NCBI GenBank assembly: GCA_013335095.1
Contig: JAAXWF010000001.1
Coordinates: 214,797-278,796, forward strand
DNA length: 64,000 nucleotides
DNA from: a candidate division WWE3 bacterium
Lineage (GTDB): Bacteria > Patescibacteriota > 4484-211 > GCA-002791395
Direction of reading: 5' to 3'
Below the pieces are notes generated by a model. The model was not told the DNA's origin, did not search any database, and saw only the letters and a list, made by a program, of their open reading frames with translations. Below, piece by piece: positions 5,101 to 29,407 of this stretch (positions are counted from its first letter, which is position 1; every line of letters starts with the position of its first letter). Made by a program: the position numbers and the translations under genes.

Positions 5101-5102
5101 AA

Positions 5103-7734: not shown

Positions 7735-7735
7735 G

Positions 7736-8585: not shown

Positions 8586-8631
8586 TGTTTTACCATCCTA
8601 ATTTAATAATGAGAAGTTATGAGCTTGAGGC

Positions 8632-9552: not shown

Positions 9553-9581
9553 ATTTATTTCCTGGGGCTAACCCCACTCGA

Positions 9582-10558: not shown

Positions 10559-10561
10559 ATA

Positions 10562-10951: not shown

Positions 10952-10955
10952 ATTT

Positions 10956-11072: not shown

Positions 11073-11080
11073 TTTTTCTC

Positions 11081-11377
11081 CTATTTCGCTGGCTGCATTG
11101 TGTTTCGATCCTTGTGTCGATAGACAATCCTGCCTAAGGTTAAATCATAAGGTGTTAACTCAACATCTACAATATCTCCCGGAAGAATCCGAATGTAATT
11201 CTTTCGCATTCGACCAGCAATCATAGCTGTTATAATCTTTTCTTCAGCTTGCTCGCTCGTTTTAGGATTGCTTGCATTTGAGCGAGCAGGATCCATCAAC
11301 CGAACACGAAACATAGTATTTGGTAATGTTTCGGTAACTTCTCCTGTAGCAACAATTACATCATCCTTTTGAGCCAT
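11081..11377 (-). CDS. infA: Translation initiation factor IF-1
   Basis: S1-like OB fold, ...[44 protein letters not shown]. Start taken at MAQKDD. Confidence 0.9.
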
Positions 11378-11437
11378 ACTACGCGTGGATTTTAACCTAT
11401 CCACGCCATTTACGCAAGGCCGTAGCCCGACCTATTT

Positions 11438-12223: not shown

Positions 12224-12225
12224 GA

Positions 12226-14131: not shown

Positions 14132-14473
14132 TTACAACCAACCGAAAATCCGATTTAAAATATGCACGATAACAAAAAGGAGATACAGACTACTTAGTGA
14201 ACTAATTGACATGATTATGTTAACTAAGAACGGCTGTCGACGATATAACAATGCAGTAATGATAAGATCTGTGGATAAAATCCCAATGGATAATCCTGGC
14301 AATAACCAAATCCACTCGCGGGACGCTAACTGAGGTTCTCCCCAAGGCTGCAAAAACCATAGAGGTATCGCCGTTGGAATCCAACGATAGTTTAGAAACA
14401 CTAGCCAGAAAATACACTGACTAATAAATAACGCAAACAATGTATTGGTAAAAACACCGCGATTTTTAAACAT
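14132..14473 (-). CDS. Hypothetical small polytopic membrane protein
   Basis: 113 aa with about 3 hydrophobic helices. Occupies the slot upstream of secY where rplO normally sits. Confidence 0.35.
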   Translation of the reverse strand: MFKNRGVFTNTLFALFISQCIFWLVFLNYRWIPTAIPLWFLQPWGEPQLASREWIWLLPGLSIGILSTDLIITALLYRRQPFLVNIIMSISSLSSLYLLFVIVHILNRIFGWL

Positions 14474-15338: not shown

Positions 15339-17159
15339 ATGATAAAAAAAATAACCTTAGTTGTATCGACTTTCTTTTTTATCTTCACAGTTCTATCGAC
15401 AAATACTGCCTTTGGTGATCAACTAGACGATCAATTAAGTGACACACAACAGAAACTGAACGCTGCGGTCGCTGAAAAAAATAAAACACAATCAGAGCTC
15501 AATAGACTGGAAAAGCTTAAACAACAATATACCGGATCACTAAGATCCTTACAAAATACGATTGCCATAACCAATCAACAAATAGACCTTACCAACGAAA
15601 CCATTAAAAACAAGGAGAACGAGATGAATCAAGTAAAAGATGATATTAAAAAATCTGAAGACGATATTAATCACCGTAAAGACCAACTCAAGAATACAAT
15701 ACGGGCTTTTTATATGATTGGACAACCGAACAAATTTGAATCCATCTTGAATCCCCTGGGAAATACAGCCGCAACACAAGGATTTGTGTATCGGATGAAT
15801 GTTATTGCGAACAGTAAAGTACAAATACTCGATCTCAATAATGATTTAGCTAAAATAAATGAGATCAAAAAATCTCTTGAGGAGCTGCAAGCTCAACTTC
15901 AGAAAGATAAAACTGATCTAGAACAAAAAAAGACCGACTTACAACGAAGTATTCAAGCGACACAAGGCAATCTTGCAACGACCTCGTCACAATCCCAAAA
16001 TGTTCAACAATCGTTATTAGGATTAGAAGGGCAAATATCTTCCCTTACTCAAAAACAAAGAGAGATTTTAGCCGCCAAAGCAGCCGCGGCACTAGCATCT
16101 ACAACCGTTGGAAATACGGAAATTAACAAAGCAGCAATCGAAAAGAATGCACCGAAAGACGGCAATGTTTACTTTTCTTTTTGGACATATGGATACCCAC
16201 ACCGTGTGGGACTTAGCCAGTACGGCGCATTAGGCAGGGCGTGGTCTGGACAATCCACGGAGCAAATATTAAAGGCATATTATCAGGGAGTGACCTTAAC
16301 AACATGGGAAGCACCAGCTTCAATAACCATTTCAACAGCGAACGGTAATCAAACCATCCCGTTTGAGGAAGATTACTTAATGGGGATTGGCGAAATGCCC
16401 TCTTGTTGGGGAGATTCCAGTCACAAGGGACTTGAAGCCCTAAAAGCCCAAGCCATAATAGCCCGCACGTATGCGCTCAATTATACAAATAATGGAACTC
16501 AACCCATTTGCACAACTCAATCGTGCCAAGTGTACATAGGTGCAAGCAAAATAAACGGGGCATGTGGAAATTATTGGAAACAAGCGGTTGAAGAAACCAG
16601 AGGACTAGTCCTAACTTCCGCAGGCCAGCTAATCTCTGCCGTGTATGCCTCCACGTCTGGTGGATTTACCTTAAACTCGGAGGATGCAAGTCCGCACTTT
16701 AACTCGTATCGAAGCTATTTGCGTGGTATTGCAGATTTTGATGCTAATGGTAAACCATATGAAGGACCAGATTACGGCGGATCCCCTTGGTATCACAAAG
16801 CCTGGGGTGATCAACCGTGGCTAAGTATATCTCAGGTAGCGGATATGTTTAATGCCGCACTTCTACCCGAAAGCTATAATAACCAACTCAGCACAATCTC
16901 TAAAGAGGACATCGTTAATCAGTTAACACAAAACGGCATTACTCCAATAACTAATTTTAAAGCTCTTGAGATTATCGATCAAAATGGAAACAAAGGAGCA
17001 AACACGGCGCAGGTTGCAAAGGTTCGGGCTTATTTTGGAGAGGGACAAATGGCTGAAGTTACAGGCGCTCGATTTAAATTTGTGTTTAACTTACGATCTC
17101 CTGGAACTGATGCTATTTGGACAACTCGCTTTGATGTGATAACTGCAGCTGAATTATAA
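15339..17159 (+). CDS. Secreted SpoIID/LytB-domain protein with N-terminal coiled coil
   Basis: Signal peptide, then ~250 aa of heptad-rich coiled coil. The SpoIID/LytB-like region covers GYPHRVGLSQYGALGRAW...EALKAQAIIARTYALNY...CTTQSCQVY. Confidence 0.65.
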   Translation: MIKKITLVVSTFFFIFTVLSTNTAFGDQLDDQLSDTQQKLNAAVAEKNKTQSELNRLEKLKQQYTGSLRSLQNTIAITNQQIDLTNETIKNKENEMNQVKDDIKKSEDDINHRKDQLKNTIRAFYMIGQPNKFESILNPLGNTAATQGFVYRMNVIANSKVQILDLNNDLAKINEIKKSLEELQAQLQKDKTDLEQKKTDLQRSIQATQGNLATTSSQSQNVQQSLLGLEGQISSLTQKQREILAAKAAAALASTTVGNTEINKAAIEKNAPKDGNVYFSFWTYGYPHRVGLSQYGALGRAWSGQSTEQILKAYYQGVTLTTWEAPASITISTANGNQTIPFEEDYLMGIGEMPSCWGDSSHKGLEALKAQAIIARTYALNYTNNGTQPICTTQSCQVYIGASKINGACGNYWKQAVEETRGLVLTSAGQLISAVYASTSGGFTLNSEDASPHFNSYRSYLRGIADFDANGKPYEGPDYGGSPWYHKAWGDQPWLSISQVADMFNAALLPESYNNQLSTISKEDIVNQLTQNGITPITNFKALEIIDQNGNKGANTAQVAKVRAYFGEGQMAEVTGARFKFVFNLRSPGTDAIWTTRFDVITAAEL

Positions 17160-17171
17160 ATCGTAGAATGT

Positions 17172-17927
17172 TTAGTGAAATCGAATTTCCAGAGGCAATG
17201 AGAATGTATCTTCCTGAGATAAAGATTGATCCGCTCCCCAAACTGAAACATCAATAGTCGCCTGTTCTCCCGGGGTCAGTTTAATAGTGCGGGTTTGTGC
17301 AGATATTATCGAGTTCGGCTCAACTACGATAGCACCGGTATATACTGTTTGACCTACATTATGACGCTGCATTAATGGAGTGACAACAAGACCATCTGTA
17401 GAGACGACAAGAACCTTTGTAGACTCATTCTCAATCCAAATAAGGTCACCTTCTTTAAATAGGGTCGGATCAGCTACTTGAACTAGGGTCGCTCCTTTTT
17501 CTATAGACTTCGTTAAAGTAGTACTATGATTTGAAGAACTAATGGTGATCAACAAACGATCGAATTTAGTAAACGATTCAGATGCCGGCAAACTAGGGGC
17601 GACAACCTCAACATCAAACGATTCGGTCGCACTTACATTATAGAGTGAATAGGCGCCGTAATACGTTGCCTTTTGGTTACGAAAAGAAGTCAGACTAATC
17701 GTATCAGTATATTTACCATTGGCAAGGGAGGTTGGAGAAAAAGCAACGTACCCGTTAAAGTCTTTTACATTAGGAATAACATTGATATTTTCTGGAGCAA
17801 CGACACGAGTTCCTGCAACAACTCCAATTTGCGCAGGTAAACGTAACATCCATTCCGATCCGACGAAAGGAAATCCCAGCAAGACGAATAACATTAATAG
17901 TAGTCCAATATTAAGCAGTGTTTTCAT
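17172..17927 (-). CDS. Hypothetical secreted protein
   Basis: 251 aa with an N-terminal signal/anchor and a beta-rich, Ser/Thr-rich body. No recognised motif. Confidence 0.4.
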   Translation of the reverse strand: MKTLLNIGLLLMLFVLLGFPFVGSEWMLRLPAQIGVVAGTRVVAPENINVIPNVKDFNGYVAFSPTSLANGKYTDTISLTSFRNQKATYYGAYSLYNVSATESFDVEVVAPSLPASESFTKFDRLLITISSSNHSTTLTKSIEKGATLVQVADPTLFKEGDLIWIENESTKVLVVSTDGLVVTPLMQRHNVGQTVYTGAIVVEPNSIISAQTRTIKLTPGEQATIDVSVWGADQSLSQEDTFSLPLEIRFH

Positions 17928-17929
17928 TA

Positions 17930-18454
17930 TTATAGTTTACTTGGCTCCATTTCTCTTTCAACATCAGCAACAACAAACCATGTAGAAAATATTGCGACCA
18001 TAAAAGAAACAAAGAGTAACCAGGATTGGCCCATATTTAGTAAGGTTTGAAATCCAATTAACATCGTCGTTAACCAAACTAATGCTAACCAAACAGTTGC
18101 TTGATGGTAAATATCTTCTGAACTGACAATAAGGGCCGTTAAATTTAATGATAATAAACGAAGCACAATCTTTGGCTCAATATGACTTTCATGCAAATGA
18201 TATGCTCGCAACAACACCCATACCAAACCGCACAAGGCCACAAATAGCATCACTAGATTGGAATAAGTGTTAATAAAACTTAGGCGGATAGGATCTTCAA
18301 TTATCAGTCGAGGAACAACTGTTTGGGGATCCAACCGCCACCCCACCGCACTTGTTTGAATCAAATATAAAACAGCAATTACTTTCGCTAGAAAAACAGA
18401 CAATGCAGGAATTATTGATTCGTCAATGAGTCGTAATAGAATGCGTGAAGACAT
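17930..18454 (-). CDS. Hypothetical polytopic membrane protein
   Basis: 174 aa with 4-5 predicted TM helices. Separated by 3 nt from the downstream secreted protein, so probably co-transcribed. Confidence 0.4.
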   Translation of the reverse strand: MSSRILLRLIDESIIPALSVFLAKVIAVLYLIQTSAVGWRLDPQTVVPRLIIEDPIRLSFINTYSNLVMLFVALCGLVWVLLRAYHLHESHIEPKIVLRLLSLNLTALIVSSEDIYHQATVWLALVWLTTMLIGFQTLLNMGQSWLLFVSFMVAIFSTWFVVADVEREMEPSKL

Positions 18455-18513
18455 GATGGCTTTAGTATAGGAACGGGTCTAAATCGATGTCAAGTAAGAA
18501 CATTAACAATTCA

Positions 18514-19533
18514 TTAAAAACCGATGACGTACACTTTTCCAAAATTCGTATTCGTAGCGACTGCCCATTTTCCGGTTTTATCAAGAGCAATATTATTCAA
18601 GCCCTCCGCAACATTAAATGCCGAAGTTAATTTAACAACCTGGGTCATTCGTCCCTGATCAAGATCAACAACACCAACCTCATTTGACGTAAAGCCCGTT
18701 ACATACATCTTTCTATGGGCGTTATCTAGTGTAAGGTCAAGAGGCGACTGAACAACATCTATAGTCTTTACAACTTTATTGGTTGTAGTATCGACCTTAA
18801 CTAATTTGTCTCCGTAAATATCAACGAGCCATAATGTATCGCTATCTAATTCAGCTAGTAATTCCCGTGGTCTTCCGACAGGATCGACAAGTCCGACAAC
18901 TAACCTGTTATCTACACCAATAACAGATAAAGTACCATCAACATCATTTGCTACATAAACGAAATCATTATTCCGATCAATTGCGATTCCCTGCGGAGCG
19001 TTGCCAACTCGAATAGTACTCACTACTTTGAACTCATATAAATTTACAACACTCACTGTATTATCAATCTCGTTTACGACAAATAAGGTGGAGCCATCAT
19101 TAGTCATCACCATATTTCCAGGTTTTGATCCAACTTTAATTTGTCCTAAAACCTGAAATGAATCTAATGATAGTTTATACAAAGTATCTGACGAAGAGGT
19201 AACGTACAAATAATTGTTTATTTTATCAACATATAACTTATTGGCACTTGGTACTGAAATTTGACCAATAATTTTTCGTGATTCAGCACTTAACGTATAA
19301 ATAATACCTTCATCATAGCTTGTAATTAAAAAGACATTGCGGCTTGATACATAAATAACATCATTTAGATCATCTCCAGCACTAACCCCTTGGACGTCAA
19401 CCAGTTCATTTGGCTCAATAATAGCGGGCTCCGATATAGAAGATGTATCTTTATGAGACCAGCTCCAATAGCCAAGTCCAATTAGTAAAAGAAGAATTAA
19501 TCCTAATATTATTTTAGTTACAATATGTTTCAT
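18514..19533 (-). CDS. Membrane-anchored YVTN-type beta-propeller repeat protein
   Basis: N-terminal TM, then ~40-residue repeats with the pattern (L)YV(T/A)N...T(L)SVID characteristic of the YVTN family (e.g. LYVTSSSDTLYKLSL, LFVVNEIDNTVSVVNL, VYVANDVDGTLSVIGV, MYVTGFTSNEVGVVDL). Confidence 0.55.
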   Translation of the reverse strand: MKHIVTKIILGLILLLLIGLGYWSWSHKDTSSISEPAIIEPNELVDVQGVSAGDDLNDVIYVSSRNVFLITSYDEGIIYTLSAESRKIIGQISVPSANKLYVDKINNYLYVTSSSDTLYKLSLDSFQVLGQIKVGSKPGNMVMTNDGSTLFVVNEIDNTVSVVNLYEFKVVSTIRVGNAPQGIAIDRNNDFVYVANDVDGTLSVIGVDNRLVVGLVDPVGRPRELLAELDSDTLWLVDIYGDKLVKVDTTTNKVVKTIDVVQSPLDLTLDNAHRKMYVTGFTSNEVGVVDLDQGRMTQVVKLTSAFNVAEGLNNIALDKTGKWAVATNTNFGKVYVIGF

Positions 19534-19535
19534 AT

Positions 19536-21269
19536 TTATTCTTGTAATGGACTAATCCATCGTATAAAGGACATAAACATATTACTTGATGCTTCAGTAG
19601 ATGAAGGTTGAATCGCTGCGATAGAAGAGCACGCAGCATTAGTATAATCCATATACGTTGCCGGACAGAGTGTACTACCACTTCTAATAATTTCATATTC
19701 CAAATGGTTGTGTGTAGTATTTCCCGTCAATCCGACAACACCAATATAATCTCCAGAATTAACGGCAAAACGTGTAACTTCGATATCACTTCCAAAGCAT
19801 GGTGAGTCAGAAGGATGAGTAGTAGCCACAGCATCCCCCGGCAATTGGGTCGCTAAATGAGAACTAATAGTACGATATACACCATCTATTCCGATAACGA
19901 TCACATATACACCACGAGATGCATAGGTCGTTGTAGATGTTTCATTAATACATCGATATGCGGTACCTCTTAGGGTGGCAAATATGGGGAAGACACCTTC
20001 TATGTCGACTTTTTGACCACTAGAAACACCGTTAGCACAGTACGTAGCATCAGCTGGACAATGTCCAGGATTATTGTTAGGTGACGAACATCCCGACGTT
20101 ACGGTACGGCTTGTAGATGAATCGTTTGGCCACCCACAAGGAACTGGTGGAAGTAGGGTTGGTGTAGGCGTTGGCGTGTCTGAAATATCAGGATTAATAG
20201 TAGGTTCAGGAATTACGATGGCATTGTATTGCCCCATTTTTCCAAAAGGCATGGGGGGGACTTCTACGTACTGCCCCGTATCGTAATCATAGTAACGGAA
20301 TGACCTAGCATCACCAGAATATGCAGTACCGTCTTTCTGTCCTTTATCTTGGTTGGTAGGTCGACGAGGATATAACGGACTAACCATCGCTGGGGGTACA
20401 ACTTTTGCACAAGTCTTACATTCAATATCTCCATCCGGAATTAACTCCTCACCACGCGGACACGTATTTGCATCAAACCTCACATTTGCATTGGTAACAA
20501 ACCACTCTGGTGGATAACACGTATTCTCCTCACCCACCGGTAATACATAATACTTGCGAGGTGTTGGACCTACATACCCCCAATTATTATTAGGAGTAGG
20601 GGTAACACTGAGTAACGGAGGATCATCATTAAATCCGGTACACGCGACTCGAGTCCAGTCTATTGTAGGAAACGCTGATTGCAGAGTACTCAATGGCCAG
20701 ACTTGTCTCATTGCTGTATACCAATCAACCCCACCAGGATGGTATTCATAGTGCCACCATTCTAGTACTCCATCAGTTGTGTGCTTGGGAATACGATTCC
20801 ATCCTTGAGCTTCAAATAACGCCGTGACATCAATACTCCCCAATGGACCATTTGCTACCACTCTAAACAGCTGCCCCTCAGGAGTAACTGTAAATGCTCC
20901 TGAAGTAGGTAGATTATATAAACTCGTTGTATATAAATCGACAGCACGACCAGTTTTATGCCAAGATCGATTAATAGAACCAGTACCAGCCGGAAGACTG
21001 GCTGGTCGCAACATATCCGAAGTTCTTCCTAGCGCATCAACACCAGTAGCGGCTAATACAGCTTGCCTGATATTTAAAAAACTATCATGCGCATTTGGAA
21101 TTAGCTTAGCCATTGATGCAACAGAATTCTGAACTCCATCGACGGTAACAAGTGGTAGATTGGGGCAACTATCCTGAGCATGGGCTTTAGATATATTATG
21201 TGGTAACTGTTTAGCCAGTACGACAAATAAAATAAATGCAGAAAGTGAGACTATTGTTAATCGTTTCAT
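19536..21269 (-). CDS. Secreted two-domain peptidoglycan hydrolase: N-terminal M15-like carboxypeptidase and C-terminal M23/LytM-like domain
   Basis: Signal peptide. SWHKTGRAVDL fits the M15 SxHxxGxAxD motif. A Pro/Thr linker (PTPTPTLLPPVP) follows. The C-terminus has HCPAD (HxxxD) and VGLTGNTTHNHLEYEI (M23 HxH motif). Confidence 0.55.
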   Translation of the reverse strand: MKRLTIVSLSAFILFVVLAKQLPHNISKAHAQDSCPNLPLVTVDGVQNSVASMAKLIPNAHDSFLNIRQAVLAATGVDALGRTSDMLRPASLPAGTGSINRSWHKTGRAVDLYTTSLYNLPTSGAFTVTPEGQLFRVVANGPLGSIDVTALFEAQGWNRIPKHTTDGVLEWWHYEYHPGGVDWYTAMRQVWPLSTLQSAFPTIDWTRVACTGFNDDPPLLSVTPTPNNNWGYVGPTPRKYYVLPVGEENTCYPPEWFVTNANVRFDANTCPRGEELIPDGDIECKTCAKVVPPAMVSPLYPRRPTNQDKGQKDGTAYSGDARSFRYYDYDTGQYVEVPPMPFGKMGQYNAIVIPEPTINPDISDTPTPTPTLLPPVPCGWPNDSSTSRTVTSGCSSPNNNPGHCPADATYCANGVSSGQKVDIEGVFPIFATLRGTAYRCINETSTTTYASRGVYVIVIGIDGVYRTISSHLATQLPGDAVATTHPSDSPCFGSDIEVTRFAVNSGDYIGVVGLTGNTTHNHLEYEIIRSGSTLCPATYMDYTNAACSSIAAIQPSSTEASSNMFMSFIRWISPLQE

Positions 21270-22237
21270 CTTTTATTTAATAAAATAACTTTACCTTCTG
21301 GACCAGAAAAAATATAGGCCGGCAATAATGTTCTTTTCTCGTTAATTGAGTGAAACAAATAATTATCGGCATAATACGCGGGTGTAATAGAATCCACATG
21401 AATATATCTATTTTCAGGATCTGTTAAATAAATGGCATCTGCAGCGCCATTTTCCATTTTACGACGAGCCTCCCCTATTGAAAGAACATTAGTAAATGAG
21501 TCCTCATTACGCACATTAGGTAAGAATAACGATAGGTTACGAATAGTACCCGTTGAATCTATCATAATAGACGTAGTAATGGGCAAGATTATTGATGCAC
21601 CATTCATTGAATAGGTAATATCACTAATTAATAATGGGCCAGATCCGGTAGCGGAAACCTGTATGTTTCCATCAGGATCTAAAAGCATATAACGAACATT
21701 TACTAAATCTACACTAATAAAGTCTTTTGGTAACTTTACTTTATCTAAAAATGTAGTCAATGCTTGTGATAGCTGTTCTGGAGACGGTTTACCTTCAGCT
21801 AAATTATTAGGACCAAGATTAAATGCTGTTGAAAAATTAATTACTCCCATCTTAGGATCAATTGATAAAACTTTATTATCCTGAGACCAGATGAACTGCT
21901 CACCCTGGTTCGATACTGTCGCTTTATCAGTAAGTCCCAAGGTAAAACCAATTAGCTGCATTGTACTGTTAGTAAACCAACGGCTCTCTGGTAAGGCTAA
22001 TTCAATATCTGCCATACGAGAAACATTCATTTCTTGCCGACCATCAACAAATTCAATATCAACTGGAGAATTACTTAATTCATCTACGAGGGTCGGGCTA
22101 CCGCCTAGTTTTATAACCGATTGAGTTGGTCTACGAGCGAAATATTCAAATAACAATGCGATCCCAAACAATAATACGATCGCAATTATGGACCCAACTA
22201 AAAGAGACAGTTTGTGTTTATTAATAAAATTCATCAT
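21266..22237 (-). CDS. Hypothetical signal-anchored extracellular protein
   Basis: 323 aa with an N-terminal TM anchor (LSLLVGSIIAIVLLFGIALLF). 4-nt overlap with the upstream hydrolase gene. Confidence 0.4.
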   Translation of the reverse strand: MMNFINKHKLSLLVGSIIAIVLLFGIALLFEYFARRPTQSVIKLGGSPTLVDELSNSPVDIEFVDGRQEMNVSRMADIELALPESRWFTNSTMQLIGFTLGLTDKATVSNQGEQFIWSQDNKVLSIDPKMGVINFSTAFNLGPNNLAEGKPSPEQLSQALTTFLDKVKLPKDFISVDLVNVRYMLLDPDGNIQVSATGSGPLLISDITYSMNGASIILPITTSIMIDSTGTIRNLSLFLPNVRNEDSFTNVLSIGEARRKMENGAADAIYLTDPENRYIHVDSITPAYYADNYLFHSINEKRTLLPAYIFSGPEGKVILLNKR

Positions 22238-22270
22238 TTATTATATTTTAACTATTTCTAAACTATATTC

Positions 22271-24007
22271 TCAATCACCAGTTGGTACCGCCGTCGGTCT
22301 TGGGGTACTCGTCGGAGCACCGGGAATTGGGGTCATGGTCGGAGTTGGCGGAGGTGTGATAAAGCCAGCATTTACATATACAGGCCCACGAACTTCATCA
22401 TTACGTTTTCGATTTAGTGAGAAGAAGTAACCTGGTAACGCGTTAGTAAAGTAGTCTTCACCTCGACATACTTCAATAAAAGGATTGTCGCGACAATCAA
22501 AATCATCTAGTCCGATACCTAATGTAGATAAGTATCTATTAGTAATAATTTCATACTGAATATGACGACGGCCAGGAGTCCCACTATCTCCCATTAAACC
22601 TAACTGCTGACCACGAGCAACATATGGTCCATAACCATAAGGGAGCTTAGTCATTCTCTCAGTTGAAGAACTTGAACCGCTGACTAAGTTAGACAATGAT
22701 ACAAAATAATCAGGTCCATAATAAGTACGCCTATAATGGACATCATTCAACATTAAGGTATATGGCATCAAATGTGTATACCGAGTAATCATGTCCGGAA
22801 CATTATCTCGGTTTAAATCAGATTCAATTTGAATCATCCATCCTTTTTCGCGAATGTACTGAGGTGCCGGTCCTGCATATGTTACAAAACCAGCATGCGT
22901 ACTATACACATGCATTGTATTTGCTAGGCTATTATTTGGCTTAACATCAATACCTGGATGAACCCAGCCTTCACGAATAGTCGGCAAGATTATTGTTGGC
23001 ACTCGATACGGAACATCAGTCGGACCTGCACCAATAGGTGTCGGAGATCCGCTAGCACTGGGTGTATAGTTTGGACAACTATTATGAGCATATAAAGCTG
23101 CGACGATATTAGCTAGAACTTGTTTGTGCCGCTGACAAATATATCCGTATGCACAATCTTGTGTTTTTAGAGCCCTAACTAAGTCGCCGGTGCTAACTGC
23201 CTGACTATTGAATGCTGATGCAATCGCCGGATCTTTACCAATTATCATGGTAAAGTATTGGCGTCGATCTGGATCAGCACCAGTACGAGAAATAGCCTCG
23301 CCTCCAGTATTTGCAATATCATCAAATGTAGCCGTATTAATTTGAGATCTATACGTACCTAACCCACCAGCTTGCCCAGAATTGAGATAGTTCCAGGCAT
23401 CCCGTTGAGCTCGTGGACTATTATTAACAATCTCATTCATCTTGGATCGCAACGTTGCAACACTTGAACCATAAAAACTTATGAATACATCTTTCCAGTG
23501 TTTACGATTCTCACCAGCCTGGTATCCACCAATTTGGTAATTTCGATAAGAACAGAATACTGATACTTGGCTTAAAGATCGATTATCATTACAGTTCACT
23601 AGATACGGATCAGGCCTCCCGCTTGTAGTATTTGAAAATGGATATCCATTCTCAAACCAAAGCCATGCGGTATTTAAATAGCGAATAATAGTAAATCCAT
23701 GACTTGCTGCATAGGCTTCACCTGATAACATTTGATTGACATCCCACTGGGTGTTTGCATCAGATTGGATTTTGGCACGAAAGGCTAAATAACCGGTGGA
23801 GCCCGTAGCTTCAGGTTGAGGCAAACCCATTGCTGCATAATCAGGTTCGGCAGGGCAGGCCTGTGCACTAACCGAAACAGGTTGGTGAAAATAAAAGGAC
23901 AGTATGAAGACAGATAAAGAACCGATGAAAACTCCGATACTAAGTCCAAGATAGTTCAAGCGAAATTTTCCGAGTTTTAAATTAGAATTAAGCATCTTTC
24001 TTAGCAT
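22271..24007 (-). CDS. Secreted LytM/M23-domain protein, possibly catalytically degenerate
   Basis: Signal peptide. GWVHPGIDV (HxGxD), then ...LGLMGDSGTPGRRHIQYEI, where the second His of the M23 HxH motif is Gln. C-terminal Pro/Thr-rich tail. Confidence 0.5.
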   Translation of the reverse strand: MLRKMLNSNLKLGKFRLNYLGLSIGVFIGSLSVFILSFYFHQPVSVSAQACPAEPDYAAMGLPQPEATGSTGYLAFRAKIQSDANTQWDVNQMLSGEAYAASHGFTIIRYLNTAWLWFENGYPFSNTTSGRPDPYLVNCNDNRSLSQVSVFCSYRNYQIGGYQAGENRKHWKDVFISFYGSSVATLRSKMNEIVNNSPRAQRDAWNYLNSGQAGGLGTYRSQINTATFDDIANTGGEAISRTGADPDRRQYFTMIIGKDPAIASAFNSQAVSTGDLVRALKTQDCAYGYICQRHKQVLANIVAALYAHNSCPNYTPSASGSPTPIGAGPTDVPYRVPTIILPTIREGWVHPGIDVKPNNSLANTMHVYSTHAGFVTYAGPAPQYIREKGWMIQIESDLNRDNVPDMITRYTHLMPYTLMLNDVHYRRTYYGPDYFVSLSNLVSGSSSSTERMTKLPYGYGPYVARGQQLGLMGDSGTPGRRHIQYEIITNRYLSTLGIGLDDFDCRDNPFIEVCRGEDYFTNALPGYFFSLNRKRNDEVRGPVYVNAGFITPPPTPTMTPIPGAPTSTPRPTAVPTGD

Positions 24008-24019
24008 ACGTTTAGTTGA

Positions 24020-26272
24020 CTAGTTTTTACAATAACGATATTCACCGTAATCTTGTGATGGGTTACCGCGATATGGACCTTGAGAATCAGCTTCGCCTGT
24101 GTATCCCCACTCCTGGCTAATTTGTCCGGACACGGGCCACCCATATGGCCTTGCTTGATCATCTGAAAGACGACCACCAATTGGTATCGATGCGAGGATT
24201 ACTGAACGCGATGCACGATCTTCCTCTAGCCCTCCAAATTCAGCCGATACTTCGATTGGCCCGATTACTGAATTATTTGAGGAAGCGTTATAACCGCAAC
24301 CACCAAATGCAGTAACATCTCGATACAGATAGAATAAAGGATTTGGTGTGGTGTCAGGCTTCTTCGGTAAAATTAAGACTCGTGGATCAGTACCTAAACA
24401 ACGTCCATCTTCAGTACGATTACCCGATAGCTGATCATATTTATCACACACAAAATTGTAGTCGCGAGGAACCAACCCACCTAATCCAGATATTGATGGT
24501 GGTGCGATATCGATACAAGGAGTAAAACAACCCATGGCGCTCGCAGCTGGTGGATTTACTGTTTGGAACAGTCGCTTTATAGGTGCTGGAATAATCATTC
24601 GATCTTCAAGCCAAGACATAATGTCTGAGTTTTTATCTTCAGGTGCCTTCACTTCGCAAGTCGGTCCAGAACAATCAGCATATGGAATTAAATCGCCTTC
24701 TCCATCACCATTTAAATCAGGACATTGGCTTAACGAACCACGTCCCTCACTCTGCGCTCTTTCATAGCACCATGGTGGAGGACAACCAGGTACAGTATAT
24801 CCGCCTTGGTCACAAGTAAATCCGCCCGCATGAGTCTGGTCAGCAATAGTAATTCCATAATACTGGGCACATTCTTGTATTGTGGGTTGGTGATCTGGTC
24901 GGTATTGACATCCCCATTCACCACCATGTAACTTAACCCCCTGACATTGACACGGAACCGCTGGTTGTGAAAGTTTATACTCCCCGAGTGTTTGTGAGGA
25001 TGTAATCGAATCTGTAGTATCCGGTAACACAGTAATCTCTGAAGAAGACGGCTGTAACGGCAACTCTTTTATCTCTCCAGCCTGTAAGGTGAATGGTCCA
25101 AACACAATTTGTGGACTGGTAACATCTGGACGTGTCTCTAAATACATAGGTACCCCATTTATCGTTCGTATCAGAATCGACGGCCAATCAGGGTTAGCAG
25201 AACCATATAATCCGATTTGTTCGGTTAAATATTCATCCAGGGAAGAACCATGTATATAATTCACTGGATTTAGAGGATTGTCTGTAGCACCTCCACGTGC
25301 AACCAAAAAATCAACGTTGTGCGCAAAGGCGTCTTCACCTCGTGCATCAAATGTTTTTGTATTAAGACGAACTAAAATATTATCGATTTCTAGATCACTT
25401 GTATTTTCAGCCTTGACGTATAACGAAATTGCATTAGATGCGTATACCTCTGTATGAAATTCAACGTATGCTTCGTCTTCACATGATCCAGTAAAACAAT
25501 CACGCACGCACTTATAAGAATATCCATCACGCCGAATAAACTTATTTGAGATAGAATTCGCCAAACCAAAGGTATTTGGACCTTGCGCCGCATGGCTAGT
25601 AACAGGAACAGCTCCCCAGTCAGCCATCACGGGAGATTGGCCACACCAACCAGCAATAACATGACGTATCCCCGAAACATGACAACCACTCTCAGGACAA
25701 ATCTCCCAATGCGGTGGTTCATCAGTTGGGGTCGGTACGGTAAAGGCATTAGCTGTTTCTCCAATCAGACCATTTAAACTAGTCGGAGTATTCAGCTCAG
25801 TACTCGCAAGAGGTGAATTTTGTTCTTGTATTCCACTACGGACTCGTCCTGGACCACATTGAGGACAAGAAATAAGACTTTCATGTAATTCTTTCAGCGG
25901 ATCTTCGACAGTTGGGACAAAGGCTTCACCACCAAGGGATACGGTATCCCACTCTAAAGATAACTTAACTTGTTTTATCATATTTGGAGCAGGAGGAACT
26001 CCCGGAGGAACCTCACCAGTAGGTACAGGAGCATCTGAGGGCACATTAGCAGGACCTTGAATTACAGCACCTCCAGGAAATGCACCAAAGAAGCCATCAA
26101 AGATAGAATCAAGACGATCTCGAAATCCACTGAAGATACCACTATTATTTCCGCTACCATCAAATATTCCACCCGCATGAGAAATACTAACGGGTCTAAC
26201 GATACAAAGTAAGGTAATCAAAAACAAAAACAGCAGTCGAGTAAGACTAGAAAAAACAGTTTGTTTATTCAT
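24020..26272 (-). CDS. Large secreted cysteine-rich protein (750 aa), function unknown
   Basis: Signal peptide, a Gly/Pro-rich N-region and many paired Cys (CPQCGPG, CQCQGVK...GCQYRP, PGCPPPWCY, CSGPTCEV). The extreme C-terminus carries YGWPVSGQISQEWGYTG, which resembles the opening strand of an M23 domain, but the protein ends before any HxGxD. Confidence 0.5.
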   Translation of the reverse strand: MNKQTVFSSLTRLLFLFLITLLCIVRPVSISHAGGIFDGSGNNSGIFSGFRDRLDSIFDGFFGAFPGGAVIQGPANVPSDAPVPTGEVPPGVPPAPNMIKQVKLSLEWDTVSLGGEAFVPTVEDPLKELHESLISCPQCGPGRVRSGIQEQNSPLASTELNTPTSLNGLIGETANAFTVPTPTDEPPHWEICPESGCHVSGIRHVIAGWCGQSPVMADWGAVPVTSHAAQGPNTFGLANSISNKFIRRDGYSYKCVRDCFTGSCEDEAYVEFHTEVYASNAISLYVKAENTSDLEIDNILVRLNTKTFDARGEDAFAHNVDFLVARGGATDNPLNPVNYIHGSSLDEYLTEQIGLYGSANPDWPSILIRTINGVPMYLETRPDVTSPQIVFGPFTLQAGEIKELPLQPSSSEITVLPDTTDSITSSQTLGEYKLSQPAVPCQCQGVKLHGGEWGCQYRPDHQPTIQECAQYYGITIADQTHAGGFTCDQGGYTVPGCPPPWCYERAQSEGRGSLSQCPDLNGDGEGDLIPYADCSGPTCEVKAPEDKNSDIMSWLEDRMIIPAPIKRLFQTVNPPAASAMGCFTPCIDIAPPSISGLGGLVPRDYNFVCDKYDQLSGNRTEDGRCLGTDPRVLILPKKPDTTPNPLFYLYRDVTAFGGCGYNASSNNSVIGPIEVSAEFGGLEEDRASRSVILASIPIGGRLSDDQARPYGWPVSGQISQEWGYTGEADSQGPYRGNPSQDYGEYRYCKN

Positions 26273-26347: not shown

Positions 26348-26770
26348 CTAAGCATTATACTTTGCTTGATTAGAAAGGTAATCCCTTAATAATTCCTTTG
26401 CCGATTCAGAATGTCCCAGATTATGAGATAGAGATAAGCCATCATGTCGCATATTTTTCTCGGCCTGAAATGTTGTTAAGAATTCAGAAAATAATATAAT
26501 ATCTACTCCAAATTGTTTTTTAATTTTTGTAAAGACTTTTTGAAAATTATCAGGTAATTTTTTCTCACCCATATCTCCGACAAGAAATGCGGTAACATCA
26601 AATTCTTTCACGATGTTCGATAAATATTCAAAAAAGAGGAATTCATTCTTGTACTGATGCGATGATAAACTTTCAATCCCATACGCAGGACGATAAATAG
26701 CCAGGCCAATATATCGAAGACCCAAATCCACACCAATAATTACCTGTTCATTTTTATGTTTGACTGTCAT
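26348..26770 (-). CDS. YqgF/RuvX-like RNase H-fold nuclease (putative Holliday-junction resolvase-like)
   Basis: VIIGVDLGLRYIGLAIY plus downstream acidic residues fit YqgF. About 140 aa. Confidence 0.55.
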   Translation of the reverse strand: MTVKHKNEQVIIGVDLGLRYIGLAIYRPAYGIESLSSHQYKNEFLFFEYLSNIVKEFDVTAFLVGDMGEKKLPDNFQKVFTKIKKQFGVDIILFSEFLTTFQAEKNMRHDGLSLSHNLGHSESAKELLRDYLSNQAKYNA

Positions 26771-28274
26771 TTCCACTACGCACCTCAACCTTCACCTCAA
26801 GTCTATCTGAAATATGCGGCATAGATCGGAATGCATCGGGGATATATGGCCAGAGATTCATATCATAACCATCAACATGCTCCATCGACTTTAATATCGA
26901 CTCAGCTTGTGCAGGACGTATATTTAATAATTGGTCATGGATCTGATTTAGATTGAGATCAGGAACGACCATTGTTGCTAACTTTGCCTTTACGGTTATA
27001 GCCGAATTTACTTGACCTTCAATTTTTTCTAACGCAAGAGAATCTTCATTGTCTGTTACGACGAATCCATCTGGTATATTATCACGGGCGACTTTACTCA
27101 ACAGTTCTTTTACATCGCTTTCAGAAAATGCAACTACACTAGCAGAAATTTTTAACGTCAGAGCAAAATTTGAAGCCTCTGCTCCTACTGGATGATCATA
27201 GTCAGCAAATTTAGTATCAAATGAAATCATATCATCAGAAAATGTCTCACCTTCTTTTAATTCAGATTTTACTTTTGTCGGTGCATCAGCCTGTAATTTA
27301 CTCTTCAATTGCTTAAGAGCATTGGATTGATCGTCGGCCGATACAACAGTTACCTCACGAGTCAATCCTCCCGTTAATGCTTGTGGATTCGTCGCTCGAA
27401 CTGATCCAAGACCTTTTACCTTAAACTCGCCAACCGTAAAATCAGAATTAGCAGAAAGATTATATGTTTCACCAATATCAAGGGCTCCAATAGCAAGAGG
27501 CGAAGATTCACCCGGATCGAGGACCATTTGACCATCCTTCTCACTAATAGTCACCTCATCAACACGAACGGATTTATTTAGTACATATGACAAAGTCCCG
27601 CTTTTAAGAATAGTTCCAACAGGTAACTCAAGTGCAGAGTCACGGAAATTTTGGATAACAACCTGACCCGTCGCTTTTTCTCCAACCTGCTTTTTTCCAG
27701 AAGATGGGAATGTTTCACTTTGTTCAATTGTTGTTTCGACCTTTCGTCCTGGAATTTTCGAATTTGACTCATCAATTGTTTGAATATCTGGGTCAACCGT
27801 AACAATAGAACTTTTTTCAATAACTCGCTGATTAACGTAGAGCGTTACAACACCACGAGGTAGATAGTATAAGACAAATCCTGCCGTGGCTAATCCGGCT
27901 AGCAACAGAATAATCAAAAACGTAGCAATTAATCTTTTTGGAGTAAGGACTGATTGATGATGTTTATGTTTTTCATTCTTTGCAATCGGAGTATCAGCTT
28001 GTTTTAGCTCGTTCTTGTCATCGAGTACGCTCTCAGTAGATTCTTCGGAGGGCTCACTATTCTCCTGCACACTCATTGGTTGTCCACCTTCATGAACTAT
28101 ATGTATTTTTTTTCCTGTACGTTGGGCTACTTTCTCTAAAAGCGATAAATTTGAATGATACGACTTGAATACAGATCCCTCTGGCAAAAACAATTCGATA
28201 TCTTCACCAGAATACTGCTTCATCCCGTGAACTACTTCATATAATCTAATATGGTCATCTAATATTATTTTCAT
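26754..28274 (-). CDS. Bitopic membrane protein with a large extracytoplasmic domain (PilN/PilO-like partner?)
   Basis: 506 aa: a ~115-aa cytoplasmic N-region, one TM (LIATFLIILLLAGLATAGFVLYYL), then a ~370-aa outside domain. Translationally coupled to the actin-like ATPase upstream. Confidence 0.4.
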   Translation of the reverse strand: MKIILDDHIRLYEVVHGMKQYSGEDIELFLPEGSVFKSYHSNLSLLEKVAQRTGKKIHIVHEGGQPMSVQENSEPSEESTESVLDDKNELKQADTPIAKNEKHKHHQSVLTPKRLIATFLIILLLAGLATAGFVLYYLPRGVVTLYVNQRVIEKSSIVTVDPDIQTIDESNSKIPGRKVETTIEQSETFPSSGKKQVGEKATGQVVIQNFRDSALELPVGTILKSGTLSYVLNKSVRVDEVTISEKDGQMVLDPGESSPLAIGALDIGETYNLSANSDFTVGEFKVKGLGSVRATNPQALTGGLTREVTVVSADDQSNALKQLKSKLQADAPTKVKSELKEGETFSDDMISFDTKFADYDHPVGAEASNFALTLKISASVVAFSESDVKELLSKVARDNIPDGFVVTDNEDSLALEKIEGQVNSAITVKAKLATMVVPDLNLNQIHDQLLNIRPAQAESILKSMEHVDGYDMNLWPYIPDAFRSMPHISDRLEVKVEVRSGNDSQT

Positions 28275-28276: not shown

Positions 28277-29407
28277 TTATAATTCAACCCTGGTTAACGC
28301 TTCAATATTTGGTAACTTACCCGAGATTGTTTCTATCTTAGGGAAATTAACAAAATGTAAAAACTTAGTCCAAGGATACGCTGATAAACGCGATTTAATC
28401 TCACTTAGATGGCGCGATTCACCTGAAATAATAAGCCGCGGTGGGAGGTCATTTACTTTGAATTCTGAGAGCGCCGACGCGATGCCTTCTACCCAGATTT
28501 CGAGCGCAGTCTCTATCGAATGTTTTGTCATTCGTCCACGATCTTGGTCTAAATGTCCTTGGGCATATTCTAATTTCAAGTTCTCAGCATTATCATATGA
28601 GGTATTAAGATCTTGCTGTATTTGCCAGGTAATATCATTTCCTCCAATAAATAAGACTTCGTTTCCAACAACTTTCCCGCTCACAACAACAACGACCTCA
28701 GTCGAGTCGCCACCTACGTCTAAAAGAATAAAATCATTTCCGTCTTTTGACAAATCGACAGCGGCTTGCACCGATGTTTCAATAAGTGACACGATTTCAA
28801 GATTAAACTGATCAATAAGCGCATTGATCGTGTTTAGTTTAGTTTGGTCAATAAAATAATGTAGCACAGCTACCTCAATTTCGTTACCGGCTAGACCAAT
28901 GGGAGTCGAAACACGGGCCCCATCGACTTCAAAACCAGTAAAACTTGTTTCAACTCGAGTTAGTTCAGAACCACACTTTGCCTGAAGCTCTTGTAATGCT
29001 TTGTTCAATGTTTTTTCTTCTATTTTTTGGGCAATGACTTCAAACTCTTTCTCGGTTAATATCTCGGTCGGATGGCTCCGTTTGGTCCTGACTCGAAGGC
29101 CTCGAACATGAATCATCCCACCTGATAAACCTAATACAACCTGATTAGATTGCGAATCTGATTTTAGAGTTGCTTCATCTAATGCTAGCTTAAGGGAATC
29201 GGTTACGGCATCTAAATTTGTAATTTGCCCTGCATACATACTTTTTCGGCCCTGTATCTGGGATCCCATCCCAATAATCCTTGACTCGTGTTGTTCATCT
29301 GCAGGTTCAAATACAGCCACACGAATAGCAGAGCTACCTAAATCGATAGCGGTGTAGTATGGGGTCTTCTTTTGTTTAAAAATATTACCTAAAAGTTTTC
29401 CCTTCAT
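28277..29407 (-). CDS. Actin-like ATPase of the FtsA/PilM family
   Basis: YTAIDLGSSAIRVAVFEP (phosphate-1), ILLDVGGDSTEVVVV (phosphate-2) and a C-terminal adenosine motif. No ftsZ follows, so PilM-like is favoured. Confidence 0.6.
   Translation of the reverse strand: MKGKLLGNIFKQKKTPYYTAIDLGSSAIRVAVFEPADEQHESRIIGMGSQIQGRKSMYAGQITNLDAVTDSLKLALDEATLKSDSQSNQVVLGLSGGMIHVRGLRVRTKRSHPTEILTEKEFEVIAQKIEEKTLNKALQELQAKCGSELTRVETSFTGFEVDGARVSTPIGLAGNEIEVAVLHYFIDQTKLNTINALIDQFNLEIVSLIETSVQAAVDLSKDGNDFILLDVGGDSTEVVVVVSGKVVGNEVLFIGGNDITWQIQQDLNTSYDNAENLKLEYAQGHLDQDRGRMTKHSIETALEIWVEGIASALSEFKVNDLPPRLIISGESRHLSEIKSRLSAYPWTKFLHFVNFPKIETISGKLPNIEALTRVEL

Follow-up and report, generated by a model that had tools for sequence, protein, structure and literature searches.

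Several described systems that act on the bacterial cell wall resemble parts of the locus analyzed here. Coiled-coil hydrolases and activators under FtsEX control, such as EnvC (E. coli, V. cholerae, and P. aeruginosa), PcsB, CwlO, and RipC, combine a signal peptide, two long helical segments with a short nonhelical break, and a wall-hydrolase domain, which may be of the dLytM, CHAP, or NlpC/P60 type. Degenerate M23 folds serve as division hubs or activators, docking to other autolysins and activating them (PMC9662197). Degenerate LytM factors include EnvC, NlpD, DipM, Csd2, and SpoIIQ. The SpoIID-SpoIIM-SpoIIP engulfment machine brings together a SpoIID lytic transglycosylase, a peptide-cleaving enzyme, and small membrane proteins. 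Monoderm type IV secretion systems (T4SS) use multidomain VirB1-like hydrolases such as PrgK of pCF10 (LytM, SLT, and CHAP domains), TraG, and TrsG/CD419, and bacteriolytic enzymes of the M23 and LAS folds include lysostaphin, LytM, zoocin A, VanY/VanX/LdcB, and Ply500.

The window, the 64,000-nucleotide stretch of candidate division WWE3 DNA that was analyzed, carries eight long open reading frames, g1 to g8, at the same positions as in the initial annotation. Genes g2 to g8 are on the minus strand, where the genes are tightly packed with intergenic gaps of -4 to 76 bp, and g1 is transcribed convergently to them. The expectation that all eight encode exported or membrane proteins was borne out by a Kyte-Doolittle scan, which found a hydrophobic N-terminal segment in 8/8, including one anchor apiece in g2, g4, and g6; by-eye reading identified signal-peptide-like N termini with AXA-type sites in g1, g5, g7, and g8. 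Eight exported proteins in a row, in a conserved synteny, are far beyond chance. Promoter and terminator scans of the locus gave results at chance level. The cluster had been described as inserted, which does not hold: its composition is native, with a GC content (0.37 to 0.44) matching the remainder of the window, and its arrangement is conserved in relatives.

The convergent gene g1 (15339..17159, plus strand) encodes a secreted 606-aa SpoIID/LytB-type lytic transglycosylase with a coiled coil, as first proposed, and matches PF08486 (3.1e-16, 60.2 bits; cutoff, 23) and TIGR02669 (2.9e-41, 142.2 bits; cutoff, 83.3). Its catalytic domain (residues 273 to 606; 16155..17156, plus strand) is matched by SpoIID structures 4rwr, 5i1t, and 5txu, and the catalytic-Glu segment GEM of SpoIID corresponds to G-E352-M. 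Residues 281 to 323 of g1 align with the SpoIID C terminus (278 to 320) and residues 340 to 464 with SpoIID residues 66 to 193, an order in which the domain appears to be circularly permuted. The N-terminal coiled-coil domain (residues 27 to 250; 15417..16088, plus strand) is EnvC/RipC-like, with scores that are all weak: NCBIfam matches to EnvC (2.7e-5) and RipC (2.6e-4) lie far under the cutoff, and the best PDB match of a profile built from six WWE3 orthologues is EnvC of the FtsEX-EnvC complex (8i6o_E; E 0.0034; residues 37 to 256). Two more EnvC chains span the full coiled coil, and the remaining coiled-coil matches are short. Convergent orthologues with 48 to 63% identity are present in L003, L008, L010, L011, L014, L015, L017, L019, and L023.

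Gene g5 (19536..21269, minus strand) encodes a secreted 577-aa protein with 14 Cys residues. The proposed fusion of M15 and M23 stands for both folds, on structure prediction and not on Pfam, with the amendment that the M23 site is also noncanonical. The LAS/M15-like head (residues 32 to 213; 20631..21176, minus strand) has the full H-x6-D ... E-x-x-H set (H104, D111, E170, and H173); its nearest relatives are Chloroflexota proteins and it occurs in only two WWE3 loci, which suggests that it was acquired. In the M23-fold domain (residues 378 to 535; 19665..20138, minus strand), the family alignment places G418-QKV-D422 at the first motif, which has lost its His, and H522-L-E524 at the second; the structures that match g5 best include DipM, EnvC, Csd1/Csd2, and SpoIIQ. 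After the g5-type gene, both in WWE3 loci and in a CPR1 locus (L022), lies g4 (18514..19533, minus strand), the membrane-anchored 339-aa YVTN-type beta-propeller recognized from the outset, which matches TIGR02276 (8.8e-15, 54.4 bits; cutoff, 27.85) and the Pfam families Lactonase and YNCE.

The secreted 578-aa protein g7 (22271..24007, minus strand) was divided by comparison of homologues into an N-terminal head (residues 55 to 314; 23066..23845, minus strand) and, through profile A2, a LytM-like domain (residues 343 to 560; 22328..22981, minus strand). The NCBI annotation starts this gene four codons further in (574 aa). The head has no credible PDB or Pfam match and is common only to P0028, P0038 (where a CHAP domain comes next), and P0039. 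The top PDB matches of profile A2 are all M23 proteins (ShyA, TagE, and lysostaphin). The domain keeps H350-PGI-D354 and H412, and the predicted His-to-Gln change in the HxH motif is real: the motif is replaced by H482-I-Q484, Q484 aligns to the second His of HLH in ShyA, and HxQ is found in 19/19 split-type homologues. Judged from these alignments, the altered zinc ligands are under conservation. In relatives, the g7-type LytM domain is fused to heads matching GH5 or CHAP and, more faintly, GH39 or GH_cc.

Upstream of g7, g8 (24020..26272, minus strand) encodes the secreted, Cys-rich 750-aa protein of the initial annotation, with 25 Cys residues, 15 of them invariant in alignment A3. No family in Pfam or NCBIfam matches it, its structure model is unusable (pLDDT 44), and its orphan family comprises about 25 clusters (E <= 1e-30) among 1.84e9 representatives. 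The C-terminal tail (residues 709 to 750; 24023..24148, minus strand; G711-WPVSG... YGEYRYC) is nearly invariant in the family and looks like the strand that leads into M23 domains; a g7-type LytM domain comes next in the same polypeptide, no more than about 15 residues on, in at least 12 family members. The partner slot after g7 is filled by g6 (21266..22237, minus strand), a 323-aa protein of an orphan family whose single N-terminal anchor agrees with its description as signal anchored. This gene is conserved across WWE3 loci and has no PDB or Pfam relative, and its A6 profile retrieves a 313-aa protein from the equivalent slot of L022 (E 2e-17).

Two further genes had been called membrane proteins, which fits g3 (17930..18454, minus strand; 174 aa, about four transmembrane [TM] segments by TM scan) and has to be modified for g2 (17172..17927, minus strand; 251 aa), which has one N-terminal hydrophobic segment and is bitopic or secreted, not polytopic. 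Both belong to orphan families. Alignment A8 of g3 has a mean column identity of 59%; g3 matches no family in Pfam or NCBIfam and is not similar to the L022 PrgI-like protein. Gene g2 is kept after g3 in WWE3 loci and has no Pfam, NCBIfam, or PDB relative. The suggestion of three peptidoglycan-hydrolase folds at one locus does not fail on its domains, since SpoIID, M15/LAS, and M23 were all recovered.

Beyond g8 and on the same strand as g2 to g8 lie ruvX (26348..26788; Holliday-junction resolvase-like; PF03652, 1.1e-12), probably a passenger gene; g10 (26754..28274), a 506-aa bitopic protein; and an actin-like ATPase of the FtsA/PilM family (28277..29407; PF14450, 8.3e-14). The ATPase was initially called PilM-like, but its profile scores place it closer to FtsA: TIGR01174 (ftsA) gives 5.1e-29 and 101.5 bits, under the 175.85 cutoff, versus 4.9e-6 for TIGR01175 (pilM). 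By TM scan, g10, which is translationally coupled to the FtsA-like gene, has a cytoplasmic N-terminal domain, a TM segment at residues 108 to 139, and a large outer domain; it has no PDB relative, and the only family matches, to GlxA-barrel and Baseplate_J, are weak and come from 2/5 members. The ruvX position and the ATPase are both kept in L007, L008, L010, L011, and L023, and g10 is syntenic in five loci. Because flanking housekeeping genes (tatD, a 113-aa protein, secY, and adk; rpsJ-alaS) are syntenic too, synteny alone cannot link the FtsA-like gene, g10, and RuvX to the module.

The order FtsA-like/506-aa bitopic protein/RuvX/g8/g7/g6/g5/g4/g3/g2/convergent SpoIID/TatD/SecY is conserved, whole or in part, in 12 further loci, mostly from WWE3 (L002, L003, L005, L007, L008, L010, L011, L013, L014, L017, L019, and L023), with protein identities of 30 to 60%. 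Apart from the one CPR1 locus, all loci in which the gene set turned up are of the WWE3 type, which, with the rarity of g8, sets it apart from a ubiquitous housekeeping divisome cluster; phage, plasmid, and viral collections held no relatives. What stays constant is the altered-zinc M23 modules, the orphan membrane partners, and the apparently permuted SpoIID with its EnvC-like coiled coil. What varies by genome is the N-terminal enzyme heads, which match M15, S8, CHAP, more weakly GH5/GH39, and faintly GH_cc, with VanY present as an insert in g8 of relatives; syntenic proteins also carry CBM60 domains. In L022, the order g8/g7-g6-g5-g4 is kept between VirB2-like T4SS pilin genes and PrgI/TraC-like genes, with flanks entirely different from those in WWE3. 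This order, the g8-g7 fusions, and duplication of the module as a unit in L005 support functional coupling within the module.

Our preferred reading, which we hold tentatively, is a native, lineage-specific, regulated WWE3 envelope-hydrolase operon that opens the cell's own wall. Its core would be the secreted, Cys-rich M23/LytM-fold proteins with altered zinc sites (the g8 tail with g7, and g5), each with a membrane-anchored partner behind it (g6 and the propeller g4, respectively), extended in WWE3 by g3, g2, and the facing g1. We infer docking by g4 and g6, a hub role for LytM, FtsEX-type control, and self-wall targeting. The anchored partners would retain the secreted proteins on the external side of the membrane; the LytM folds may be docking or activating hubs, or weak endopeptidases, like EnvC, NlpD, DipM, and Csd2; and cutting would fall to the variable heads, here the LAS/M15 peptidase on stem peptides, and to SpoIID on glycan strands. 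The g1 coiled coil could impose conformational control of the FtsEX-EnvC/PcsB kind, and the wall would be locally opened or split at division, during turnover, or for passage of envelope-spanning machines. The fixed chromosomal position among core genes, the FtsA-like gene upstream, the EnvC-like coiled coil, and, by analogy with division regulators, the altered LytM zinc sites argue for a self-directed role; the lack of ftsZ, ftsEX, mur, and pbp among the window open reading frames scanned argues against it.

The evidence points both ways between this role and host attack, raised in the initial annotation, with self-directed use (division, turnover, or machine insertion) slightly favored. We consider it rather unlikely that the proteins form a wall-breaching apparatus by which WWE3, as a putative episymbiont, cuts the envelope of an attached host with interchangeable heads on M23 scaffolds, alone or with a T4SS/pilus machine, to gain access to host material. 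The swapping of heads between close relatives fits such use, as do the secreted, Cys-rich proteins and the apparently acquired LAS head. The S8 and GH5/GH39-like heads at the g5/g7 slots are not peptidoglycan directed and count against a self-directed role, because splitting a cell's own peptidoglycan has no obvious need of them. The CPR1 module inside a T4SS locus points the same way, given that epibiotic growth in Saccharibacteria requires the patescibacterial T4SS and hydrolases beside virB4 (PMC12102498, PMC10633639), as does the closed WWE3 genome RAAC2, reported without a complete identifiable peptidoglycan synthesis pathway (PMC3812714); this pathway is reported present in soda-lake CPR MAGs (PMC6146748). 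However, the T4SS association comes from one locus, with no T4SS genes in the window or any WWE3 locus examined, and the VirB1/PrgK-type hydrolases of monoderm T4SS work on the donor's own wall. The native composition and fixed place among core genes, the division-type control suggested by the coiled coil and FtsA-like neighbor, and the altered metal sites of both M23 folds also speak against attack on a host.

It is improbable that the locus encodes a surface-bound scavenging set whose cell-attached enzymes degrade environmental necromass (for example, peptidoglycan, glucans, and proteins) and thereby nourish a fermentative auxotroph. The glycosidase-like, CBM60, and S8 domains of syntenic proteins, the secretion or anchoring of every component, and the described dependence of CPR genomes on external building blocks (PMC3812714) would suit it, but all recognizable heads in the window (SpoIID and LAS) are peptidoglycan directed, the conserved parts are not catalytic glycosidases but metal-site-impaired M23 folds and orphan partners, conservation with the cluster does not extend to any uptake genes, and an EnvC-like regulatory coiled coil is unexpected on a digestive enzyme. 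Very improbable is the absence of any system, with unrelated exported proteins adjacent only through slow rearrangement of a WWE3 core region, since the syntenic housekeeping flanks and chance-level promoter and terminator scans that favor it are set against the g8-g7 fusions, the unit duplication, the order kept in CPR1, the operon-like or overlapping spacing, and the M23-type modules common to three of the genes. The self-wall-opening module we prefer is one whose enzyme heads differ between relatives and whose core is shared with a T4SS locus of a related lineage.

Compared with the described systems, g1 has the overall build of EnvC, PcsB, CwlO, and RipC but carries an apparently permuted SpoIID/LytB catalytic domain in place of theirs, an architecture that we did not find in the literature searched, and the window has no ftsEX. 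The catalytic Glu segment is conserved as in SpoIID of endospore formers, and the combination of enzymes and small membrane proteins recalls the engulfment machine; in contrast, this is a nonsporulating patescibacterium, the SpoIID domain of g1 is apparently permuted and is joined to a coiled coil, and Pfam and NCBIfam revealed no SpoIIP or SpoIIM homologues among the cluster proteins. Unlike the VirB1-like hydrolases, the window proteins have no SLT or CHAP domain, VirB4, VirB3, VirB6, and pilin genes are absent near the WWE3 cluster, and the module is spread over four to five separate genes, among them those for a propeller and for orphan partners. The folds and the full LAS set are those of bacteriolytic M23/LAS enzymes, but the canonical HxH is missing from both M23 domains (g5 and g7), known wall-binding domains such as SH3b and LysM are absent, and the proteins are embedded in a conserved multigene cluster. 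With the degenerate LytM factors they share an M23 fold with changed zinc ligands; g7 differs from those factors in retaining 2/3 zinc ligands and both auxiliary His residues, with a strictly conserved Gln, its domain type has a large insertion, and the M23 domains here are fused to catalytic heads and a Cys-rich body.

The eight genes that the initial annotation had grouped as a battery of exported wall-remodelling proteins were recovered as long open reading frames (ORFs), with g1 on the forward strand (15339-17159) and g2 to g8 on the reverse strand (17172-26272) at spacings of -4 to 59 bp. All eight products are exported or membrane proteins, as had been proposed, each starting with a hydrophobic segment. 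Among the two genes that had been described only as encoding membrane proteins, g3 does encode a polytopic product, with about four TM segments, whereas the product of g2 is bitopic. Cysteines number 25 in the 750-aa g8 product, in line with its description as Cys rich, 14 in g5, and 8 in g7. Proteins identical to g5, g7, and g8 are recorded at NCBI as HGA91_01260, HGA91_01270, and HGA91_01275, from a 536-kb contig of a WWE3 MAG. Upstream on the reverse strand lie, in order, ruvX, g10 (26754-28274, encoding a 506-aa bitopic protein), and the genes for an FtsA/PilM-family ATPase, a 282-aa protein, alaS, a solute-binding protein, and rpsJ-tuf-fusA-rpsG-rpsL; downstream are tatD, a gene for a 113-aa membrane protein, secY, adk, and map. 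The earlier view that the cluster is inserted between its flanks is contradicted by the GC content, which at 0.37 to 0.44 across the region is like that of the window, and by the gene order, which is kept in relatives. An origin from a prophage or mobile element was rejected, as the composition is native and no relatives were found in IMG/VR, the INPHARED phages, or the PLSDB plasmids; searches of PHROGs returned only weak M23-type matches.

Promoter and terminator scans of the region gave matches at chance level. The best sigma-70-like match (TTGACA-18-TATACT, 11/12) is located at 18464-18493 on the reverse strand, in the 59-bp gap before g3, and may be an internal promoter for g3-g2. The 113-aa protein between tatD and secY (14132-14473) has about three TM segments and no family match and is found in the same place in three relatives' loci (L003, L011, and L014). 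Across positions 33711-34019 to 12818-14116, the genes after rpsJ are those for the solute-binding protein, alaS, and the hydrolase operon, in place of rplC, with secY-adk-map about 20 kb further on; the rplC-to-rplO block seems, judged by ORF sizes only, to lie upstream at about 42 to 50 kb. The order rpsJ-alaS-FtsA-like is also seen in loci L007 and L023. Elsewhere in the window, a stretch of about 1.7 kb (58500-60200) stands out with a GC content of 0.50 to 0.60, the background being about 0.41. Pfam matches of its ORFs are absent or weak (one weak Sigma70_r4), and no credible match came from an Rfam E-value scan; the stretch may be of foreign origin or encode an RNA that has gone unrecognised. 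A tmRNA gene adjoins smpB at 54091-54984, which is an ordinary arrangement.

The flank that had been called ruvX/pilM-like does contain ruvX, but the scores of the actin-like neighbour favour FtsA over PilM, with a match to the pilM model TIGR01175 of 25.8 bits (cut-off, 133) and a match to TIGR01174 that is also below cut-off. A type IV pilus PilM assignment was rejected on the TIGR01175 score and for want of a PilN/PilO partner: the product of g10, which accompanies the actin-like gene, has no PilN/PilO match and a cytoplasmic domain of 108 residues. Membership in a dcw-type divisome cluster was also rejected, since the genes beside the ftsA-like gene are alaS, the 282-aa gene, g10, and ruvX, with no ftsZ, ftsW, mur, or pbp among them. 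No genes for FtsE or FtsX were found among the window ORFs scanned. The g10 family is next to the FtsA-like ATPase in every locus seen, and two of five g10 orthologues weakly match a GlxA beta-barrel (7.6e-6) and Baseplate_J (0.0016).

The SpoIID/LytB domain proposed for g1 was clearly recovered by both PF08486 (60.2 bits; cut-off, 23) and TIGR02669 (142.2 bits; cut-off, 83.3). The product is not an orthologue of the sporulation protein SpoIID, because the true SpoIID equivalog model, TIGR02870, scored 91 bits against a cut-off of 234.75. Its catalytic Glu segment, G-E352-M, aligns with the GEM of 5i1t, the form present in the SpoIID proteins of C. difficile and B. anthracis. In g1 (residues 273-606, 16155-17156), the catalytic-Glu segment comes after the GYPHRVGLSQYGA motif, whereas SpoIID structures have this motif at the C-terminal end, and the protein ends with the strand that normally comes before the motif. 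Because the segment carrying the GHGVGMSQ-type motif (residues 281-323) lies ahead of the normally N-terminal catalytic part (residues 340-464), the domain is apparently circularly permuted relative to SpoIID structures. Two helical stretches make up the N-terminal 250 residues. A six-orthologue profile of this coiled coil gave as its best PDB match the EnvC of FtsEX-EnvC complexes, full length at a weak E value of 0.0034, and NCBIfam gave weak matches to EnvC (2.7e-5, far below cut-off) and RipC, scores of a kind that coiled-coil composition inflates. An EnvC-like character of the arm is therefore suggested by these alignments, not conclusively. No description of a coiled-coil-SpoIID architecture was found in the literature searched.

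The C-terminal domain of g7 matched the M23 family PF01551 at 25.1 bits (gathering cut-off, 28.7), and a nine-homologue profile of it matched only M23 structures; it is a divergent M23 domain. Its first zinc motif, H350-PGI-D354, has the H(x)nD form. The second was correctly noted as altered from His to Gln, as H482-I-Q484 aligns with H-L-H, and HxQ is found in all 19 of the 19 split-type members, the fused LytM domains reading QxH, QxQ, or HxH. According to a review of M23, zinc is bound by the second His of HxH, and M23 folds that have degenerated serve as hubs or activators (PMC9662197). The g8 family shows almost no variation in the last 40 residues (G711-WPVSG...YGEYRYC), a tail that resembles the strand leading into M23 domains. 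This small family comprises about 25 clusters (E ≤ 1e-30) in a set of 1.84 billion representatives, and at least 12 of its members have a g7-type LytM domain within about 15 residues after the tail in the same protein; g8 and g7 are therefore a fission/fusion pair. A structure model of g8 (11 homologues; pLDDT, 44) was not used. Matches of the g7 head to designed helical repeats in PDB profile searches were spurious, Pfam found nothing on this head, and hhalign found no relation between it and the "WLEESG" accessory domain of g8 homologues.

The M15+M23 fusion proposed for g5 is real, on the evidence of Foldseek matches and invariant LAS residues, although Pfam alone misses the M15 part. On g5 itself the VanY match had an E value of 0.23, below cut-off, and Peptidase_M15_4 matched 10 of 13 homologues, at best with 4.3e-4 and in all cases below cut-off; PF01551 scored 18.6 bits against the gathering cut-off of 28.7. 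An hhalign comparison of the LAS domain with a single VanY segment gave 5% probability, and phmmer searches of g5 and g7 against the PDB gave nothing. The structure was predicted because M23 was subthreshold and M15 was not recovered by Pfam, and it was the fold search that settled the assignment of the LAS domain. The model, built with 26 homologues, had a pLDDT of about 90 for the N-terminal domain (residues 32-213) and 60 to 88 for the C-terminal domain (residues 425-535); the top 50 Foldseek matches in the PDB were all M23/LytM-fold structures, including the related LECT2, and both a LAS fold and an M23/LytM fold were assigned. H104, D111, E170, and H173, invariant in 13 homologues, correspond to the zinc ligands (H-x6-D plus the distal His) and to the catalytic Glu of E-x-x-H, so the head has a full zinc-ligand and catalytic set and is predicted to bind metal. 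It is closest to domains of Chloroflexota M23 proteins (40 to 53% identity), which suggests domain acquisition. The M23 domain, judging from its motifs, is also non-canonical, a correction to the initial annotation: the first zinc motif is G418-QKV-D422 with no nearby His, where relatives have a His 5 to 7 residues upstream, and the second reads H522-L-E524 in the family register instead of HxH (alternative register, H520-N-H522). The g5-type proteins end in a conserved tail, hydrophobic-L-x-x-I-N-P-F/L, with no TM segment after it (19536-19600 and homologues); through this INPF-type tail the proteins may dock to the propeller that the following gene encodes.

That propeller, the YVTN protein g4, was supported by TIGR02276 (54.4 bits versus 27.85) over two stretches and by matches to Lactonase and YNCE propellers. 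PDB profile searches with g10, g6, g2, and the g7 head yielded only noise, and g2, g3, g6, g8, and g10 had no known relatives in family or PDB searches and constitute five orphan families. Relatives' contigs were compared ORF by ORF, and the order FtsA-like/g10/RuvX/g8/g7/g6/g5/g4/g3/g2/convergent SpoIID/TatD/113-aa/SecY was found to recur, completely or partially, in another 12 loci (L002, L003, L005, L007, L008, L010, L011, L013, L014, L017, L019, and L023) at a protein identity of only about 30 to 60%. What stays constant is g6, g4 to g1, almost the whole of g8, and, from the two remaining proteins, the g7 LytM-like domain and 330 C-terminal residues of g5 (the "GQKDGTG" region and M23 fold). 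The heads are exchanged. In the g5 slot, the LAS/M15 head is present only in the window and L002, an S8 subtilase replaces it in L008 and L010, L007 has a weak, subthreshold GH5-like match, and some loci have no detected head; in L023, a separate S8 protein adjoins a short g5-type gene. In the g7 slot, the unknown-fold head of the window gives way to GH5 in L011 (with a weak GH_cc match), with fainter GH39-like (L007) and GH_cc (L008) matches elsewhere, and the g7 head is itself paired with CHAP in the homologous protein P0038, the context of which was uninformative. Homologues of g8 carry an extra CBM60, a VanY insert, or the "WLEESG" domain, and L005 has the module twice in tandem (1331-12621), as g8-g7-g6-g5-g4-g8'-g6'-g5'.

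Stand-alone genes for g7-type LytM proteins occur in housekeeping (L024), defence-island-like (L025), and plasmid-like (L026) settings, and because these contexts are mixed, the domain alone says little. In L025 (10001-16297), a g7-type LytM+PPC protein is encoded beside a Laminin_G protein of 2605 aa and a prokaryotic Argonaute (Piwi-domain) gene accompanied by a methylase and a helicase. On the 29.5-kb contig L026, a 796-aa g7-type LytM protein is encoded by an element that resembles a plasmid or ICE and also encodes ParA, a Replic_Relax relaxase, an AEP primase, a toxin-antitoxin pair, and a 1705-aa SNF2-like helicase. A distant g3 homologue in L021 lies among housekeeping genes and was uninformative.

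A single copy is linked to a T4SS. Locus L022, which encodes a protein assigned by NCBI to a CPR1 bacterium, has four consecutive genes that keep the order of the module: they encode a fused g8/g7, a g6 homologue (profile E value, 2e-17), an M23 protein of the g5 type, and a propeller of the g4 type, with three T4SS_pilin genes on one side and PrgI-/TraC-like genes on the other. Homologues of g3, g2, g10, the FtsA-like protein, and SpoIID are all absent from this locus. The linkage is confined to this CPR1 homologue of the module: VirB4, VirB3 (PrgI), VirB6, and pilin genes are absent from the window cluster and the WWE3 loci, and membership of the window in an MPF-FATA-type T4SS was rejected accordingly. 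No homology was detected between g3 and PrgI/VirB3 or between g2 and the T4SS proteins of L022; neither g3 nor g2 resembled the PrgI-like and TraC-like proteins encoded there. In Patescibacteria, T4SSs are encoded on the chromosome, mostly without a relaxase, and a Saccharibacterium requires its T4SS for epibiotic growth, along with the peptidase and lysozyme homologues next to it (PMC12102498; PMC10633639).

From these arrangements we infer that the cluster encodes a membrane-tethered wall-opening complex, in which the anchored g6 and g4, and in WWE3 also g3 and g2, would hold the secreted proteins, the LytM folds would dock or activate, and the heads and SpoIID would do the cutting. Action on the cell's own wall, at division, turnover, or machine insertion, is slightly favoured, at a little under an even chance, because the cluster keeps a fixed place in the core genome, has an FtsA-like neighbour, and encodes a possibly EnvC-like arm and LytM folds like those of division regulators. 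A host-directed role is a serious, if less probable, rival; in its favour are the heads in relatives that are not directed at PG, the T4SS surroundings of the module in CPR1, and the likely acquisition of the LAS head. It is also favoured by the closed WWE3 genome RAAC2, reported to lack a complete PG pathway (PMC3812714), but reports on WWE3 peptidoglycan are contradictory, since soda-lake CPR MAGs are reported to be able to make it (PMC6146748). A more specific proposal, which we regard as rather doubtful, is that the module is an unrecognised modular wall-breaching device: an M23 scaffold with interchangeable heads, docked on an anchored propeller and orphan protein, would open the host wall at the epibiotic interface with T4SS-type or other machines, and in WWE3 would have become fixed in the chromosome as an operon linked with an FtsA-like ATPase and with a permuted SpoIID under EnvC-style regulation. 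A scavenging role for the cluster is quite unlikely, and coincidental synteny is very improbable.

To our knowledge, almost nothing is known of division, wall remodelling, or host-envelope breaching in Patescibacteria, and we know of no cultured member of WWE3. The module is well defined, conserved, and undescribed, with a putative target and activity, and the locus offers a concrete candidate set for these processes: the LAS head, two conserved non-canonical M23 folds (HxQ and HxE), an apparently permuted SpoIID with a possibly EnvC-like regulatory arm, and five orphan families. Predictions of target specificity that can be tested follow from the exchange of heads and from the one T4SS-linked copy. 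If host directed, the module would provide the wall-opening function so far missing from the epibiotic machinery; if self-directed, it would be a lineage-specific autolysin control system in which SpoIID is added as a new catalytic payload to coiled-coil regulation of the FtsEX kind.

Several known systems are resembled in parts. The FtsEX-EnvC/PcsB-type regulated hydrolases are one such system, although no ftsEX was found in the window, and the dLytM regulators EnvC, NlpD, DipM, Csd2, and SpoIIQ are another, although the HxH motif of the window is non-canonical. In contrast to the SpoIID-based engulfment machine, which it also partly resembles, the locus gave no SpoIIP or SpoIIM match and its SpoIID is apparently permuted. 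Although the window is without T4SS genes, the locus likewise shares partial resemblance with the PrgK-type T4SS hydrolases.
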